Shown piece after piece: positions 10,910-18,201 of a stretch of DNA of 64,000 nt. The stretch covers positions 1 to 64,000 of the IMG/VR virus record IMGVR_UViG_3300027759_000002; one strand, written 5' to 3'. The position numbers and the translations under genes are program-made. Position 1 is the stretch's first letter. Every line of letters begins with the position of its first letter. The notes beneath the pieces were generated by a model, which saw only the letters and a program-made list of their open reading frames with translations, did no database searches and had not been told where the DNA came from. Source of the stretch: a virus.

Positions 10910-12361
10910 ATGATTTTTGAAATTGAAGCCACACGATTTGAAGATGGTGATAAAAGAGTTTTTCACTATGACAATATGGCTAATGTGTTGAAAGATTCTG
11001 ATGGTAATGTGTTTGAATATCCGGCAGACCAAATGCCACAACATTCTTTGAAACCTTACAAACCATTTGACAAGAATCGTCCACTAAAAAAATCAAAATT
11101 AATCAGCCATTTGAAGATTCAGATGGGGTTGAGTTGTAACTATTCTTGTGATTATTGTTCACAGAAGTTTGTTGAACGCCAACCAGAAACCTCTAAAAAA
11201 GATATTGATGTTTTTATGGAGAAATTAGATAATCTTCATTTTGATGAAGATGTTGGTTTAAGAGTTGAATTTTGGGGTGGTGAACCACTTGTTTATTGGA
11301 AAACAATGAAGCCATTGGCTGAGGCCATTGCAGAAAAATTTGACAGTTGGAAAACTAAACCTATTTTTAGTATCATTACAAATGGTTCTATTTTAACAGA
11401 TGAAATCATTGACTGGTTAATGATGATGGATTTTGGTGTGTCAATCTCACATGACGGTCCAGGTCAATTTGTACGTGGTCCTGATCCTTTTGATGATCCA
11501 GAACAAAAAGAACGTATACTTGGATTCTATCGCATGATGACAAGACTAGGTAAAAGTTTCAGTTTCAATGCAATGTTGAATGCTAAGAACCAAAGTAGAA
11601 AAGAAATCTATGATTGGTTTGTAAATCTCACAGGAGATGAAAATGTTATTATTGGTGAAGGTTCAATGGTTGATGCCTATGATGAAGAAGGTATTTCGTA
11701 TTCACTAATCACAAAACAAGAACATTTTGATTTTAGACAGAAGGCCTTTGGTGAGTTATATGCTTCTGATGGTAAAATTGGTTTCTTGCCTCAGCTGGGT
11801 AAAATTGATGATTTAATGGCCTCAATTTTGAGTCATAGAGAATCTAAATATTTGGGTCAAAAATGTGGTATGGACGATGAACATACAATTTCAGTTGACC
11901 TACGTGGTAATGTGATGACCTGTCAGAACGTAAGTTCTTTGGAAATCTCAAAGAATGGTGAATCGCACCATGGTGGTACATTGGATAATTATTCAAATGT
12001 TGAATTAAAATCTGTCACACATTGGTCAAATCGTAAAGAGTGTCCAGAATGTCCAGTGTTACATATATGTAAAGGTGCATGTATGTTCTTGGATGAAAAA
12101 TATTGGGATATCTCATGTGCAAATGCATATTCAGATAATGTGGCCTTGTTCGCAGCTGCTTTCACTGTAATGACAAATGGTTATATACCAACTTTGATTA
12201 AGAGTGATACTTTACCATTAGATAGACAAGACATTTTTGGTACGATTTTTGAACATAATGAAGAAAATAAGAAAAAAATCATACCAATCAAGGTAGTTAA
12301 AGAGATTATTGGAACTGTTGATGATGTTGCGGTATATGGCAAATCTCGTTTGGAAACCTAA
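10910..12361 (+). CDS. radical SAM/SPASM-domain enzyme (peptide/protein maturase class)
   Basis: CxxxCxxC motif CNYSCDYC, FWGGEPL, IITNGS and SISHDG; SPASM cysteines KCG...GNVMTC...CPECPVLHICKGAC...C. Confidence 0.92.
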   Translation: MIFEIEATRFEDGDKRVFHYDNMANVLKDSDGNVFEYPADQMPQHSLKPYKPFDKNRPLKKSKLISHLKIQMGLSCNYSCDYCSQKFVERQPETSKKDIDVFMEKLDNLHFDEDVGLRVEFWGGEPLVYWKTMKPLAEAIAEKFDSWKTKPIFSIITNGSILTDEIIDWLMMMDFGVSISHDGPGQFVRGPDPFDDPEQKERILGFYRMMTRLGKSFSFNAMLNAKNQSRKEIYDWFVNLTGDENVIIGEGSMVDAYDEEGISYSLITKQEHFDFRQKAFGELYASDGKIGFLPQLGKIDDLMASILSHRESKYLGQKCGMDDEHTISVDLRGNVMTCQNVSSLEISKNGESHHGGTLDNYSNVELKSVTHWSNRKECPECPVLHICKGACMFLDEKYWDISCANAYSDNVALFAAAFTVMTNGYIPTLIKSDTLPLDRQDIFGTIFEHNEENKKKIIPIKVVKEIIGTVDDVAVYGKSRLET

Positions 12362-12395: not shown

Positions 12396-13304
12396 ATGGC
12401 AACACCAGATTTCAACAGTTCAATTGCAATTTCTCAAATTAATACTGAGGTTGGTAGAGCTGCAACTACGGCAAGTACAGATTTAAACTTTTTAAATAGC
12501 TATTTGAAACCTGCTGGCAGTCCACCGAGGCAGTTAAATCCACAGAGTATGAACGTATATCGTGGTGGTTTAACTTATTACCAAAAAAACAATGCCGGCA
12601 ATTGTAACAACGCTGCTAATGTAACACAGAATTGCAATTGTGGTAATATTCAATGTACTGCAACAAACAACTGTGTTGCAATTAACTGTGCTAATTGTGA
12701 TACACAAAAATGGTTACAAAGCGGAAATTGCCAAGCGGCAACCACACCAGTATACAACTGCACGAACAACCAAAATTGTTTCACCTATAATTGTAATTGT
12801 TCTAAAATTATTTGTACCAAGTTGTTTGATTTGGGATTGATGAAGAAAAACATTTTTGTGGCTGACCAAGCATTTGGTGAACAATTAAAGAAAACACATC
12901 CGGATATATACAATGGTTATCGTGCATGGGCAGAGATTGTTGTTGATTGGATGGACGGTAAAGGACCTAAGATGATGCCTTGGATGTCCGATGAAGATTT
13001 TAGTGTTGCTGCGAAAAAGTGGTCTATCACATGGGCACATGATATTGCAACACCTTGGGCTGAAGAAATGGCCTATATGATGGGTGAAAAAGAAACTGGT
13101 AGTTTAACTGGTAAAATGATGTTTGCATTTGGTACACCAATCTGTAAAGTTATTGGTGTGTGGCAACGTTGGTTTGGACCAAGTAAGAAAGAACCTGGTT
13201 TTATTAAAGGTGCAGGCCTTGTTGTAATTTTTGTTATGTTCAAATTGGTTGCTGAACTTGGTAGATTTATTGAAAAGTTTATTCCAAAGAAAAAGGTGGC
13301 ATAA
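12396..13304 (+). CDS. Asn-Cys-repeat protein, candidate substrate of the adjacent rSAM enzyme
   Basis: N-terminal ISQINTEVG segment; 67-codon tract at 12600-12800 with 12 Cys; C-terminal KIICTKL...GY..WA domain with a hydrophobic tail. Confidence 0.8.
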   Translation: MATPDFNSSIAISQINTEVGRAATTASTDLNFLNSYLKPAGSPPRQLNPQSMNVYRGGLTYYQKNNAGNCNNAANVTQNCNCGNIQCTATNNCVAINCANCDTQKWLQSGNCQAATTPVYNCTNNQNCFTYNCNCSKIICTKLFDLGLMKKNIFVADQAFGEQLKKTHPDIYNGYRAWAEIVVDWMDGKGPKMMPWMSDEDFSVAAKKWSITWAHDIATPWAEEMAYMMGEKETGSLTGKMMFAFGTPICKVIGVWQRWFGPSKKEPGFIKGAGLVVIFVMFKLVAELGRFIEKFIPKKKVA

Positions 13305-13600
13305 TGGCGACATATTCTTCAAGAAGACCAGTTTTAATAACTGGTGATAGTGGTGATAATAAATATTTGGGTGAACACCTAACACATTTCTTCAACACAA
13401 TTAGTTATAATATTGTAAATTCATTTTCACAAGAAGACAAAGAACGTTTCTTTAAGATGGTAACAGACCATGAAGGTATGATTACTAAATTATACGGAGA
13501 GTGTGTATTGAATTCTGTAATATTTTTACCAGCAGCGATAAAAAAAGGTACAAAAGATAAATTGGTGGACGAATATAAAATATGGTTGGATAATCAATGA
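13304..13600 (+). CDS. hypothetical protein in the modification island
   Basis: 98 aa, start coupled to the upstream stop. Confidence 0.75.
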   Translation: MATYSSRRPVLITGDSGDNKYLGEHLTHFFNTISYNIVNSFSQEDKERFFKMVTDHEGMITKLYGECVLNSVIFLPAAIKKGTKDKLVDEYKIWLDNQ

Positions 13601-13989: not shown

Positions 13990-14694
13990 ATGACAAATAT
14001 TATGACAAAAAATGATAGAGACCAGTATCACTGGTATCAAAATGCACAAAATATGTTTTGGCAAAGTCCAATTTGGGAAGTGCAAACTCGTTTCGATGAA
14101 CATTTCAATGAAGTTTTATTAGATGAAATTTATGGTATCGGCAAAGATATCGTATTGGGTAAAGACAAAGACCCAAACAACAGTATATGGGACTACAGCA
14201 GACCCAATTTAGATATACTGAAACAAGAAATTGTAGACATAGTAACCAAGAAGATTGTACAGAATATTCCCCAATTAAGAATGTTAAACATTCGTGGTTG
14301 TGAACACTTCATGGGTTGGGTCAATGTACGTGAACCAGGGGAACGTTTGGAAGTTCATGGACACACCGAATCTGCTATCGCAGCAACGTATTACATAAAG
14401 GCTAAAGAAGGTTGTGGTGACCTTGTGGCGTTTGATTCTGCACAAGCAATTGATTGGTTAAATAATACTCTAAGTAACACACCAAAATTGCGAGAACGTA
14501 GGTTTAAACCAGTTGAAGGTAGATTGATATTTTTTCCATCATATGTTTTGCATGGCGTTGATAAAAATAAATCCGATGATTTACGCATTTCATTGTCAAC
14601 CGACCTAAGAAAAGTTGTAGACAAAAATGCACAGAATACGGTAATTTTAAAATCGTGGGCTGGCCGCATGGCAAAAATTAGAGAATGGAAATAA
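13990..14694 (+). CDS. putative Fe(II)/2-oxoglutarate oxygenase (TIGR02466-like)
   Basis: HxH (EVHGH), AATYYIK, GRLIFFPSYVLHGV and RISLS. Confidence 0.8.
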   Translation: MTNIMTKNDRDQYHWYQNAQNMFWQSPIWEVQTRFDEHFNEVLLDEIYGIGKDIVLGKDKDPNNSIWDYSRPNLDILKQEIVDIVTKKIVQNIPQLRMLNIRGCEHFMGWVNVREPGERLEVHGHTESAIAATYYIKAKEGCGDLVAFDSAQAIDWLNNTLSNTPKLRERRFKPVEGRLIFFPSYVLHGVDKNKSDDLRISLSTDLRKVVDKNAQNTVILKSWAGRMAKIREWK

Positions 14695-15224
14695 TGTTTA
14701 CAAAACTGGAAACAAATTTTGAAAAACCATTATTTGCAGTTACCGACCCACTAAAAAATTTCAAACACGAAGGTAAAGGTATCGACTATAAAAAGATATG
14801 GTCACCTGAGGCTGACAAAATATATGGTGTGATACCAAAAAGGTACTGGCAGGATTTTCACTTGACAGTAATGACGATTGACTGTATAATCCCACCACAT
14901 ACGGATACGGAAATTATTACTTCAATTAACTTTTACCTACAAACAGAAGATTGTACAACTACATTCTATACACCAAAGGTTGGTAATCCACGAACATTGC
15001 AGGTGGATAATCAAACCAATGGACATATATATTTTGAAGAAGATTTAATTGAAGTTGGTAGTTTTGTTGCTAAAGATTATGAGATTTGGTTACTTGATGT
15101 GAGTCAAATACATGGCGTCAAAGGTGAATTTAATTTACGTAAAGCCATTACCTTAGGAACTTTTGTTCATAAGTATGAGACTGTACTAGAAATGTTAAAG
15201 GAAACCAATAATGTCGTTTGTTAA
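14685..15224 (+). CDS. putative Fe(II)/2OG oxygenase (cupin fold)
   Basis: HxD (PHTD), SINFY, distal His (SQIHGV) and Arg (RKAITL). Confidence 0.65.
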   Translation: MEIMFTKLETNFEKPLFAVTDPLKNFKHEGKGIDYKKIWSPEADKIYGVIPKRYWQDFHLTVMTIDCIIPPHTDTEIITSINFYLQTEDCTTTFYTPKVGNPRTLQVDNQTNGHIYFEEDLIEVGSFVAKDYEIWLLDVSQIHGVKGEFNLRKAITLGTFVHKYETVLEMLKETNNVVC

Positions 15225-15879
15225 ATTAAAACACACATATGAATATATGCCTCATACAATCATATCGCAAGGTAAGGCAGATTCTTTTGCTGGTAAATAT
15301 GGATTAGGCGTCAGACATAATACAATTTGGACACCAGAAAAAGAAAAAGAAGTTTTGTATAAAGTTATACCAGAAAGATATTGGAAAGATTTTCAAGTAA
15401 CCAGAATGTCTATTAATAGTTTATTGTTGCCACACGTTGACAACGATTTTATAACAACAATTAATTTTTATTATGATCCACAAAATTACAGAACAATTTT
15501 TTTCAAACCAAAACCTGGAGCAAATTCTTGGAAAACAGAAGAAGATAGACATGATGATGCTGGTTTAAATATGAAAGATGAAAATGTTGATGTTGAGGAA
15601 CTAAAAACCAGAGTTAAAGAATTTGTAGCAGAGAAACAAAATATGTTGACATGTGAAGAAATAACATATGTTGATGCTGTATATACTTTTGATGATGTAT
15701 ATGAAATTGGATCTTTTATTGCTCAACCTAGTGAAGCATATATGTTAGATGTGAGAATACCACATAATGTTGAACCATTAGGCGGCGAAGCAAAACTTAG
15801 AAAGGCATTTTCATTGAGAAGTAAAATATATGATTATGGCCAAGTATATGAGATGTTGCAAGAAACTGGAAATTTATAA
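15211..15879 (+). CDS. putative Fe(II)/2OG oxygenase, paralog of 14685-15224
   Basis: HxD (PHVD), TINFY, RIPHNV and RKAFSL; shares IPxRYWxDF with the upstream gene. Confidence 0.65.
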   Translation: MSFVKLKHTYEYMPHTIISQGKADSFAGKYGLGVRHNTIWTPEKEKEVLYKVIPERYWKDFQVTRMSINSLLLPHVDNDFITTINFYYDPQNYRTIFFKPKPGANSWKTEEDRHDDAGLNMKDENVDVEELKTRVKEFVAEKQNMLTCEEITYVDAVYTFDDVYEIGSFIAQPSEAYMLDVRIPHNVEPLGGEAKLRKAFSLRSKIYDYGQVYEMLQETGNL

Positions 15880-15889
15880 AGGATAAGAA

Positions 15890-16687
15890 ATGTTTTTTGA
15901 AAAATTAAACTACACAGTAGATATTGAAAAATTAAAACAAGAAGTGAAAGATAGTGTTTTTACTTTAGGTGACCAAGTTATACAAGGTGAAGAATATGAA
16001 ACTCCAAAATACAATGGTTTTGGTGGTTGGAGTTTAATGTGTAAAGAGGCTACATGGACTGGTGGTTGGGAATCTATTCAAATGGAAAAAGGCCAATCAT
16101 TGGAATCATTTTTGCCAACAGAAGAATTGGTACTCAAAGCATACAAATATTTTAATATTTCACATGGACTAGAACATGACAAACCAACTGAAGCATATGT
16201 TGGTGAAATTAAAAAAGTATTAGATGATATACGTGAGATGGGATTCAATCCAGTTAGAGCAAGGGTCACTTGTTTAAAAGCACACTCAAAGAGTTTAGTA
16301 CATAAAGATGCAGATGCAGCTGAATATATGGCACGTATTCATATTCCATTGTTTACAAATAAAAAATGTGTACACATCTGCCAAGGTAAAAACTTACATA
16401 TGCCGGCAGATGGTGGAGTTTGGATTTTGTGGACAAATACTTGGCACCAAATTAGAAATGATTCTGATGAAGATAGGTATCACATTATCATGGATGCATA
16501 CGATACTAAAAAGGTAACAAAATTCTTTAATTATGATGGCAATTTCGAAGAATTGGAAAACTATGTAAGAGGCTTTAGAGAAAAGATTGATGCCGCTGAA
16601 TTGACTGATGAGGATATTGATTTCTTTGATGCTATTAAAGAAAAATATGTCACAAAAAGAGTGAGAGATAACGAAATTACTGTATGA
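15890..16687 (+). CDS. Asp/Asn beta-hydroxylase-like Fe(II)/2OG oxygenase
   Basis: HxD (VHKD), RIHIPL, TWHQIRN and RYHIIMD. Confidence 0.78.
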   Translation: MFFEKLNYTVDIEKLKQEVKDSVFTLGDQVIQGEEYETPKYNGFGGWSLMCKEATWTGGWESIQMEKGQSLESFLPTEELVLKAYKYFNISHGLEHDKPTEAYVGEIKKVLDDIREMGFNPVRARVTCLKAHSKSLVHKDADAAEYMARIHIPLFTNKKCVHICQGKNLHMPADGGVWILWTNTWHQIRNDSDEDRYHIIMDAYDTKKVTKFFNYDGNFEELENYVRGFREKIDAAELTDEDIDFFDAIKEKYVTKRVRDNEITV

Positions 16688-18201
16688 TGGATACACATGG
16701 AATTGTTTTTACTGGTATGGAACGAACTAGAACAATTAGTCGACCAGCTGGTGCAGCAAGATTGAGAACTTTTTTAGAGCCTCATGGATATAACATCGAG
16801 GTCGTTGATTACTTTGGTAACTTCACTGAAAAAGAAATCGAAACAATCTGTGATAGATTTATTGGACCAAAAACTTTGTTTGTTGGTATCAGTATTACGT
16901 TCATATATGCTTTTGATAAATTAAATCATTTATTCAAATATATCAGAGAGAAATATCCACAGGTGAAAACACTGATTGGTGGCAATGAGACACCAATTGA
17001 TGGTGTTGATTTAACACAAGTGGACAGAGTATTTTGGGGTTACGCTGAAGAAGCAGTATTACACTACCTTAAATTTCTAAACAAAAAACGTTTAGATGAT
17101 TTGAAATGGGTACCATACAAAGGAACACTATCTATCAATGCAGAAATGATATATAAAAATGATGATAGTGATTTAACAATTAAATGGTTAGAAAGTGACT
17201 TAATAAAAAACAACTTTTTACCTATTGAAATTAGTAGAGGTTGTATTTTCAGATGCAGGTTCTGTGCTTTTCCATTGTTGGGTAAAAAGAAGAATGACTA
17301 CATCCGAAAAGTTGATAATTTAGCCGCAGAGTTGCGTAGAAACTATGAGATGTTTGGTGTGAATAACTATTGGTTCAATGATGATACATTCAACGACAAT
17401 GTGGTTAAATTGGATTATGTTGCTGAAGCTATTGCAAAGAGTGGTGTTAAAATTACTTACACAGCATTCTTACGGGCCGATTTGATAGAACGTTTTCCAG
17501 AAACAATATCTATGTTAGCAGATACTGGTTTGGTTGCTGCAACATTTGGTTTAGAAACTTTTCATCCTGAAGCGAAGAAGGCCATCGGAAAAGGCCTAGA
17601 TAATGAAAGACAATTTGAAGCAATTCGCAAACTAAAGAAATATAAACCAATCTACACATACACTGGTATGATATGTGGTTTACCTAGTGAACCACTTTCG
17701 AGTGTATATAAAAGTCAGCAGATTTTACTGGATCAAAATTTTGAAGTATTTGATAATTGGGACTGGTGGCCGTTAATTATCAGAAAAAATTCTGTTAGTA
17801 GATTAAGTGAATTTGAAAAAGAATATGATAAATGGGGATACACTGAAATGACTCATGGTGATTATACATTGTCTAAAGACGATAATGATACTAGATATAA
17901 TAATGATGATAGTAATATGATGATGTGGAAAAACAAATATATGAACTATCTTTCCGCAAGAAAAATTGCCACTTTGTTGAATCTAGAAACGGAAGAACAC
18001 CGCATTAAAGCCGGAAAATCCATCTATGGTAATGCTGACAAAGGAGTTAGTATCAACCATGATGTATTTGAATTGGTTGGTATGGGAGTTGATGTGAAAG
18101 ATATCATTGATGGAACGTTTGATAAGTCTTTTTTGAATCAGAAAATCAAAGAAGCGGATCAAACTATTCTTGAATATAAAAATTTAAAGTTAGGAATATA
18201 A
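16684..18201 (+). CDS. B12-binding-type radical SAM enzyme (class B methyltransferase-like)
   Basis: EISRGCIFRCRFC motif, FNDDTF, LRADL, FGLETFH and N-terminal cobalamin-binding-like domain (PAGAARL...VDY...FVGISI...LIGG). Confidence 0.82.
   Translation: MMDTHGIVFTGMERTRTISRPAGAARLRTFLEPHGYNIEVVDYFGNFTEKEIETICDRFIGPKTLFVGISITFIYAFDKLNHLFKYIREKYPQVKTLIGGNETPIDGVDLTQVDRVFWGYAEEAVLHYLKFLNKKRLDDLKWVPYKGTLSINAEMIYKNDDSDLTIKWLESDLIKNNFLPIEISRGCIFRCRFCAFPLLGKKKNDYIRKVDNLAAELRRNYEMFGVNNYWFNDDTFNDNVVKLDYVAEAIAKSGVKITYTAFLRADLIERFPETISMLADTGLVAATFGLETFHPEAKKAIGKGLDNERQFEAIRKLKKYKPIYTYTGMICGLPSEPLSSVYKSQQILLDQNFEVFDNWDWWPLIIRKNSVSRLSEFEKEYDKWGYTEMTHGDYTLSKDDNDTRYNNDDSNMMMWKNKYMNYLSARKIATLLNLETEEHRIKAGKSIYGNADKGVSINHDVFELVGMGVDVKDIIDGTFDKSFLNQKIKEADQTILEYKNLKLGI

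Follow-up and report, generated by a model that had tools for sequence, protein, structure and literature searches.

An Asn-Cys repeat protein encoded beside a radical-SAM/SPASM enzyme in an aquatic myovirus: a probable enzyme substrate whose motif recurs on phage tail fibres

Radical S-adenosylmethionine enzymes carrying a SPASM domain (radical-SAM/SPASM enzymes) are known for small peptide natural products and for a few cofactor-bearing cellular proteins. The locus analysed here pairs such an enzyme with a viral protein. It lies in the IMG/VR record IMGVR_UViG_3300027759_000002, of which we studied the first 64,000 nucleotides (the window), and the protein, 302 amino acids (aa) long, contains a tract in which nearly every cysteine directly follows an asparagine (the Asn-Cys or N-C tract, hence the N-C protein). 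The closest described systems are the ranthipeptide pairs PapB/PapA (freyrasin), CteB/SCIFF and NxxcB/NxxcA, in which, as in the phage, the SPASM enzyme gene adjoins the gene of a Cys-rich ribosomal substrate, and in which the acceptors are Asn or Asp beta-carbons (PMC8326336). Freyrasin contains six Cys-Asp bridges and NxxcA is bridged Cys-Asn; Asn and Asp beta-carbons, together with the Glu gamma-carbon, are known thioether acceptors in NxxcA, freyrasin and QhpC (PMC8326336, PMC13692751). The Cys-rich SPASM substrates that have been characterised all carry thioethers, namely the SCIFF peptides, freyrasin, NxxcA, QhpC and, in 2026, CrpA (PMC8326336, PMC13692751). The phage system resembles the ranthipeptides also in that its enzyme has the CteB structure and the profiles of PapB, CcpM and the SCIFF maturase among its best matches. 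It differs from them in falling below the family cut-offs, in having no RiPP recognition element (RRE; RiPP, a peptide made by the ribosome and modified after translation), protease or exporter, in a substrate that is a protein of 130-300 aa or a tail fibre rather than a peptide of 40-50 aa, and in a register that is an N-C dipeptide and not NxxC or CxxxD.

Two further enzyme systems and one structural parallel are relevant. In QhpD/QhpC and CrpC/CrpA, the SPASM enzyme acts on an entire protein from its own gene cluster and cross-links its cysteines (PMC13692751), as we propose for the phage; CrpA itself is rich in Cys, has no assigned role, and its predicted fold is of low confidence (PMC13692751). 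Both systems are cellular (an amine dehydrogenase subunit and a methanogen protein, respectively), and their motifs are different ones, CPLVL in the case of CrpA; relative to them the phage and tail-fibre context is new. The anaerobic sulfatase-maturating enzyme (anSME) is the best structural match of the phage enzyme, has no RRE, acts on a protein Cys and contains two auxiliary SPASM clusters, yet it makes formylglycine at a single C/S-x-P/A-x-R site of a sulfatase, a motif absent here, where twelve cysteines are candidates. The structural parallel is the T4 fibre protein gp37, whose His-x-His repeats bind iron: its iron needle is formed distally on a trimeric fibre by a short repeat of alternating residues whose side chains face the axis. 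The phage motif differs from it in consisting of Cys and Asn rather than His and in being accompanied by a dedicated radical enzyme. In our literature searches, no paper described a phage radical-SAM enzyme coupled to an Asn-Cys motif.

Our analysis shows that an (Asn-Cys)n protein and one family of SPASM enzymes form a conserved two-gene unit, found in myoviruses, a siphovirus, the Ackermannviridae-classified phage RSP15 and many prophage-like regions. On the evidence of sequence and gene order, we consider that the tract is a protein substrate of the radical-SAM/SPASM enzyme encoded immediately upstream, probably for thioether cross-links, with a probability of roughly 0.6. Inseparability of the two genes in phages, seen from either direction of search, makes the tract look like a target of this enzyme. 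With the enzyme as query, all 63 viral loci recovered (61-100% identity) had an N-C protein as a neighbour; once a second scan had been added and duplicates removed, 80 of 83 distinct enzymes had one adjacent to them, the three exceptions being contigs that end on the expected side. This is one of the features expected of a ranthipeptide or sactipeptide precursor, a Cys-containing substrate beside a SPASM maturase. The reverse search was carried out blind in viral contigs for DNA encoding NCNCNCNC and returned 120 loci, for each of which a limited stretch was fetched: a strong enzyme-family match was present in 48 of the 86 loci in which NCNCNCNC is in frame and in 0 of the 34 in which it is out of frame. 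Since the fetched loci are unequal in length, all co-occurrence fractions are lower bounds, and since many loci are interrelated, the counts are not independent events; the four motif-bearing architectures (long form, short form, fibre tail, and fibre with Hint domain) are a better measure of independence.

The composition of the cassettes indicates which part of the N-C protein is coupled to the enzyme. Long forms, which include a C-terminal helical module, were found at 69 of the 80 loci, always downstream of the enzyme, and short forms at the other 11, as proteins of 129-173 aa made of the N-terminal module and the tract only, without the C-terminal module. Ten of these 11 lie directly upstream of the enzyme, in the manner of precursor genes, and a profile of the N-terminal module matches long and short forms alike at the related loci. 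Conversely, proteins with the C-terminal module only, placed behind poly-Gly linkers (P0106, P0111), are not beside the enzyme. The short forms being paired with the enzyme and the module-only proteins being unpaired, the link follows the tract and not the C-terminal module. The genes flanking the cassette also vary by phage (PhoH here; elsewhere an AAA gene, a DUF4815 gene with Peptidase_S74, or others), and the cassette therefore moves as a unit.

The tract corresponds exactly to nucleotides 12600-12800 when 12396-13301 is translated on the + strand. A first-pass annotation of the DNA had reported that 11 of its 12 cysteines directly follow Asn, and retranslation reproduced this count, with Gln before the remaining one, as well as the NIQC and NQNC spacings pointed out at the same time; of the 67 residues, 18 are Asn (27% Asn) and 18% are Cys. 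The annotation had proposed that in a genuine recognition motif the N-C register would persist while the spacing varied. To examine this, 578 homologues of the N-C protein from a large protein collection, none with a Pfam domain across such an architecture, were combined with tracts from the related loci and thinned to 110 sequences less than 80% identical. These tracts contain 8 to 31 cysteines each in 77 distinct spacing patterns, and across their 1546 cysteines the preceding residue is Asn in 79%, Ala in 7%, Asp in 6% and Gln in 5% of cases, that is, Asn, Asp, Gln or Ala in 97% and Asn, Asp or Gln in 90%. Thus the spacing varies and the register is kept; the loss of the preceding Asn in homologues, which was to count against the idea, did not occur. 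In conserved Cys columns Asn precedes in 85% (in three columns essentially 100%), while at lineage-specific cysteines it falls to 32%, with Asn, Ala, Asp and Gln together still at 86%. The constraint is confined to position -1 (79% Asn vs a tract background of 23%). At position -3, where the suggested NxxC spacing would place it, Asn reaches 31% against the same background, and we consequently discard NxxC as the register; it is an incidental by-product of NCNC runs. Aromatic W, Y and F residues are also conserved within the tract. A conserved N-C register with variable spacing would fit a motif that is read locally.

Within the same family we noted short-form proteins of approximately 165 aa with 30-31 cysteines (L068:2623-3120 and L069:407-901), in which the N-C tract runs on into (Cys-Ala/Cys-Asp)n, such as CACACDCACAC; their genes lie directly upstream of the radical-SAM gene.

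The enzyme matches Pfam Radical_SAM (PF04055) with 38.4 bits (cut-off 29.5) and phrog_1802 at 2e-62. Its SPASM region has the layout C319-x13-G-x4-C338, followed by C378-x2-C-x5-C-x3-C391 and a last cysteine, C403, a seven-Cys pattern that in sequence terms corresponds to two auxiliary clusters. The weak full-length NCBIfam matches include the PapB, CcpM, QhpD, SCIFF and anSME maturases. The nearest solved relatives by profile are TigE (8vpo), CteB and anSME, and the epimerase YydG is among the matches as well. The AlphaFold2 (AF2) model of the enzyme, with a predicted local distance difference test score (pLDDT) of 85, retrieved in Foldseek first anSMEcpe (E 4e-13; TM-score ~0.65 by target length and ~0.51 by the 483-residue model), then TigE and then CteB.

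These matches bear directly on the chemistry. That the tract is an enzyme substrate undergoing a different reaction, such as conversion of Cys to formylglycine, epimerisation or C-C bond formation, appears unlikely to us, although it agrees with anSMEcpe as the best structural match, with the presence of TigE (a cyclopropylglycine enzyme) and YydG among the relatives, and with the annotation of the homologue in phage JWF as an anaerobic sulfatase-maturating enzyme; like anSME, moreover, the phage enzyme is devoid of an RRE, and its target would be a large or folded protein. However, the anSME target motif is absent from the tract, and the profile search ranks thioether-forming CteB (4e-13), together with the families of PapB, CcpM and QhpD, above anSME. 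Because the characterised Cys-rich SPASM substrates carry thioethers, as described above, and because 90% of the residues at position -1 are Asn, Asp or Gln, residues with side-chain methylenes of the acceptor type already known, thioethers would in our estimation be favoured about twofold over other radical chemistry such as formylglycine formation or epimerisation.

According to the mechanism we propose, the enzyme would generate a 5'-deoxyadenosyl radical and abstract a hydrogen within the tract, and the cysteines would be modified, most likely by several thioether cross-links from sulfur to carbon. The acceptor, or else a local recognition element, may be the residue at position -1, which is mainly Asn and more rarely Asp, Gln or Ala. 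Optional decorations could then be added by the 2-oxoglutarate (2OG)-type oxygenases, the Asp/Asn-hydroxylase-like enzyme and the B12 radical-SAM enzyme of the cassette. The product would probably be a covalently hardened or stapled fibre-type virion part and not a secreted peptide, because the trimeric tail fibres of related systems bear short (N-C)n motifs at their C-terminal tip; here the motif may represent an expansion to 67 residues within a small stand-alone protein. The first-pass annotation had taken the register for the mark of a multi-core substrate, either for thioether formation or for Asn hydroxylation. The genomic context is in line with the tract being a radical-SAM target, whereas hydroxylation would be an accessory step at most, the hydroxylase-family gene (PF05118) being found at none of the 11 short-form loci.

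The possibility that the tract is instead a metal-binding or disulfide-stabilised structural element, with the enzyme acting indirectly or on another target of the fibre module, seems improbable to us; of this, metal binding was given as the alternative in the first-pass annotation. One form of it would be a ladder of cysteines on the axis of a trimeric fibre tip that binds metal ions. C-x-C and C-x-x-C indeed dominate the tracts (a Cys-Cys spacing of 2 occurs 376 times and of 3, 189 times), alternating x-C repeats would set all thiols on one face of a strand, and the motif is located C-terminally on fibres that contain collagen repeats and are hence trimeric. The authors who described CrpA likewise suspect that their Cys-rich protein binds metal (PMC13692751). 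AF2 yields no fold for the tract without a cofactor (pLDDT below 50 over residues 68-100 and 113-136), and a sequence search of the PDB returned noise only; the absence of a confident fold is also usual for modified cores. What a metal or disulfide role leaves unexplained is that one enzyme family accompanies the motif in both search directions and that short tract-only proteins are encoded directly upstream of that enzyme. In addition, Pfam and NCBIfam scans detected neither a metallothionein nor another metal-domain family, and a strict Asn at position -1 is not a metallothionein feature; with 18% Cys and conserved W, Y and F, the tract does not have metallothionein-like composition, although CxC and CxxC are present.

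The distant relatives of the enzyme place the motif on tail fibres, a membership that the first-pass annotation had missed and that likely shifts the role of the product from a free peptide to a modified virion or fibre part. Enzyme relatives of ~44% identity are encoded in the cultured phages JWF and RSP15, within tail-fibre clusters. In JWF, the annotated fibre gp028 (gp36-like, with a Hint domain) is two genes from the enzyme and contains QNCNCDCNCNCSC directly before the N-terminal Cys of the Hint domain; in RSP15, a side-fibre fragment ends with NTNCQCGN. A metagenomic relative (43-47% identity) is found beside three tandem small proteins, each with an NCNCNC-type tail. In bacterial genomes, a motif of at least three consecutive N/D/A/Q-C dipeptides is present within 6 kb at 65 of 80 loci of enzyme relatives (36-70% identity), compared with 1 of 80 after residue shuffling, a control that preserves composition and not phylogeny; most of the 15 loci without the motif are short contigs. 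The bacteria are mostly freshwater Burkholderiales (Limnohabitans, Polynucleobacter, Paraburkholderia, Burkholderia paludis MSh1), and the regions are prophage-like; relatives of 36-56% identity there and in JWF and RSP15 have (N-C)n-bearing proteins nearby, tail fibres for the most part. There the motif usually occupies the extreme C-terminus or the position directly before a Hint domain, and the (N-C)n-tailed proteins match PHROG tail-fibre families, sometimes with collagen repeats.

The trio of small proteins beside the metagenomic enzyme (L154:3587-4499) consists of paralogues of 92-109 aa with an N-terminus of the GNG-I-V-T-F-G-D-G-T type; a Peptidase_S74-like fibre gene flanks them on one side and the radical-SAM gene on the other, and oxygenase-like genes surround them.

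Given this fibre context and the fusion of the C-terminal module elsewhere to Gly_rich_2, He_PIG, DUF4815 and PA14 domains, a modified virion or fibre part would be the more likely role for the N-C protein. The opposite case, in which modification would yield a free peptide or protein (a RiPP-like toxin, a signal or a host-directed effector) that is released at lysis or anchored in the host membrane and is not part of the virion, we hold to be rather doubtful. Several features would suit it: the short forms look like precursors, in which a conserved N-terminal region is joined to a core rich in Cys and whose genes lie directly upstream of that of the maturase; a transmembrane-like helix closes the long form; the cassette of the window stands among auxiliary genes such as PhoH; and the N-C protein matches no structural family. 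No cassette examined, however, contains a leader protease or an exporter, the same motif and enzyme occur with bona fide tail fibres, several phages have the cassette directly after DUF4815 or Peptidase_S74 fibre genes, and the C-terminal module is fused to adhesin-type domains in other proteins. Going one step further, it is possible, and we put it forward only tentatively, that phages staple the distal ends of fibre-type virion proteins by radical-SAM/SPASM Cys-Asn thioethers, within or between chains, with (Asn-Cys)n as the recognition code.

Several observations weigh against the tract as a thioether-forming substrate of the SPASM enzyme and against its fibre role, the case for which is assembled from gene neighbourhood and homology. 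The chemistry is not settled by homology, as the closest solved structures catalyse three different reactions, and the top Foldseek match, anSME, is a Cys/Ser oxidase and not a thioether synthase. No NCBIfam cut-off for a named equivalog (PapB, CcpM, QhpD, SCIFF maturase or anSME) is reached by the enzyme: its 44 matches are all far below the cut-offs, the best having 78 bits against a cut-off of 340. Its N-terminus shows no canonical winged-helix RRE in the AF2 model, where a three-stranded sheet (residues 2-9, 15-21 and 26-29) precedes the core without helices, and the alignments to CteB and TigE start after the RRE regions of those proteins. Neither a leader protease nor an exporter is present among the cassette genes here or at the related loci examined. 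Ala, which makes up 7% of the residues at position -1, is not a classical acceptor. With respect to the fibre role, the N-C protein has no match to tail-fibre families in Pfam or PHROG, the cassette of this genome adjoins PhoH and not fibre genes, and the transmembrane-like end would be hard to reconcile with a virion part as long as the C-terminal module stays attached.

If the tract is indeed a substrate of the SPASM enzyme, the system would represent a new kind of post-translational chemistry for virion assembly and receptor-binding parts, acting on a highly repetitive class of substrate in which the acceptor may immediately precede the donor Cys. One SPASM family is here tied to phage fibre-type proteins through the simple code (Asn-Cys)n; viral contigs numbering in the hundreds contain it, as do freshwater Burkholderiales in prophage-like regions, and cultured systems would be at hand in Achromobacter phage JWF and Ralstonia phage RSP15. 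Should the stapling of fibre ends prove true, it would be the first case in which a radical enzyme cross-links a structural protein of the virion, and a widespread one, in aquatic myoviruses as well as in Burkholderiales prophages; tail fibres would have in it a covalent alternative to their cleavable chaperone domains.

Explanations at the DNA level or by chance can be dismissed: chance or low complexity is ruled out by residue shuffling (no shuffle reached 11 N-C pairs, whether among 200,000 made from the tract or among 50,000 made from the whole 302-aa protein) and by conservation in homologues, a tandem DNA repeat by its absence from the tract, and a template/variable pair of a diversity-generating retroelement by the lack of a second copy of the tract in the 179,754-bp genome and by Asn positions that are conserved and not variable. 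The codons of the tract are mixed (AAT 10, AAC 8, TGT 9, TGC 3), which together with the absence of a tandem repeat and of a second copy places the signal at the protein level. The tract is the sole N-C tract of the genome, in which we also found no paralogue of any of the three modules of the N-C protein.

The virus record is complete (179,754 bp, with terminal repeats), and represents a T4-like aquatic myovirus that has no close cultured relative: its PhoH is only ~40% identical to cyanophage PhoH. The coordinates of the cassette and of the parts of its two central proteins are collected in Table 1.

Table 1. Features of the Asn-Cys cassette, in window coordinates. ORF, open reading frame.
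Feature	Coordinates	Strand	Basis
Radical-SAM/SPASM enzyme, 483 aa; candidate maturase of the N-C tract	10910..12361	+	Pfam, PHROG, motifs, fold
CX3CX2C radical-SAM cluster motif (C76/C80/C83)	11135..11158	+	Invariant in two alignments, JWF and RSP15 enzymes included
SPASM region, seven invariant Cys (C319, C338, C378, C381, C387, C391, C403)	11864..12118	+	Two alignments
N-C protein gene, 302 aa, stop codon included	12396..13304	+	ORF list; single copy in genome
N-terminal module, aa 1-68; candidate recognition or docking part	12396..12599	+	Alignment; shared by both forms, the long and the short
Asn-Cys tract, aa 69-135, 12 Cys (11 N-C)	12600..12800	+	Translation, homologue counts
C-terminal helical 'KIICT' module, aa 136-302, optional in family	12801..13301	+	AF2, profile search
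Hydrophobic transmembrane-like segment, aa 268-286, ending the C-terminal module	13197..13253	+	Kyte-Doolittle 19-residue mean 2.02
Two small ORFs, 98 and 128 aa	13304..13983	+	Kept in closer relatives only
2OG-Fe(II) oxygenase PF13759	13990..14694	+	Pfam 1.8e-17, phrog_81
Two paralogous genes, 179 and 222 aa, PHxD...H motif	14685..15879	+	Oxygenase-like by motif only
Asp/Asn beta-hydroxylase-family gene PF05118	15890..16687	+	38.1 bits vs cut-off 22.6
B12-binding radical-SAM gene, accessory	16684..18201	+	Pfam Radical_SAM and B12-binding

Among the accessory genes, an oxygenase of the type encoded at 13990-14694 or 14685-15224 is present at 64 of 69 long-form and 7 of 11 short-form loci, the PF05118 gene at 60 of 69 long-form loci, and the B12 radical-SAM gene at 17 of 69 long-form and 3 of 11 short-form loci (20 of 80 overall). 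The radical-SAM/SPASM enzyme alone is universal among the cassette enzymes, for which reason hydroxylation and methylation would be optional decorations at most. The two paralogues share 33% identity (E 6e-33) and the motifs IP-x-RYW-x-DF, PHxD and INFY; neither has a Pfam match, and they probably represent a diverged pair of 2OG oxygenases. The first of them (14685-15224) belongs, with the N-C protein, to the conserved core of the long-form loci.

Pfam, PHROG and NCBIfam scans gave no match for any part of the N-C protein, including known ranthipeptide or sactipeptide precursor families in Pfam and NCBIfam, and its neighbours in the ESM Atlas are unnamed viral clusters only. The N-terminal module is modelled by AF2 with low to moderate confidence. 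The C-terminal module, which opens with K-I-I-C-T-K-L, is modelled as an all-helical bundle (pLDDT ~88) without a structure match in the PDB, and a viral structure library returned only uncharacterised phage proteins with the same end-piece. The transmembrane-like segment reaches a Kyte-Doolittle value of at least 1.6 in 83 of 86 family members.

The consensus of the T4 late promoter, TATAAATA, is absent near the N-C gene; it occurs twice in the 64-kb window where shuffling predicts 7.1 occurrences, a count below chance that makes it uninformative on the timing of the gene, and this phage probably uses another late-promoter motif.

The KIICT module is widespread. A profile search with the whole N-C protein returned 1511 cluster representatives, dominated by this module, and among the 150 best matches it stands at the C-terminal end of phage proteins of ~150 to 1859 aa, usually after a poly-Gly and sometimes a poly-Pro or poly-Arg run. 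Since it is fused to Gly_rich_2, He_PIG, DUF4815 and PA14, all adhesin-type domains, we flag this unnamed module as a common end-piece of phage adhesin-like proteins. A small ORF directly follows KIICT-ending genes, of 66 aa at L009:8933-9133 and of 98 aa at 13304-13600 of the window. Hint (intein-like) domains adjoin the (N-C)n motif directly on its C-terminal side or the KIICT module directly on its N-terminal side ('...VHNKK-IICTKL'), as in P0153, P0157, P0170, P0181, P0192, P0246 and P0236 and at L075:2811-4262 and L177:3709-5268, an arrangement which suggests that self-cleavage at these junctions would leave (N-C)n as the mature C-terminus.

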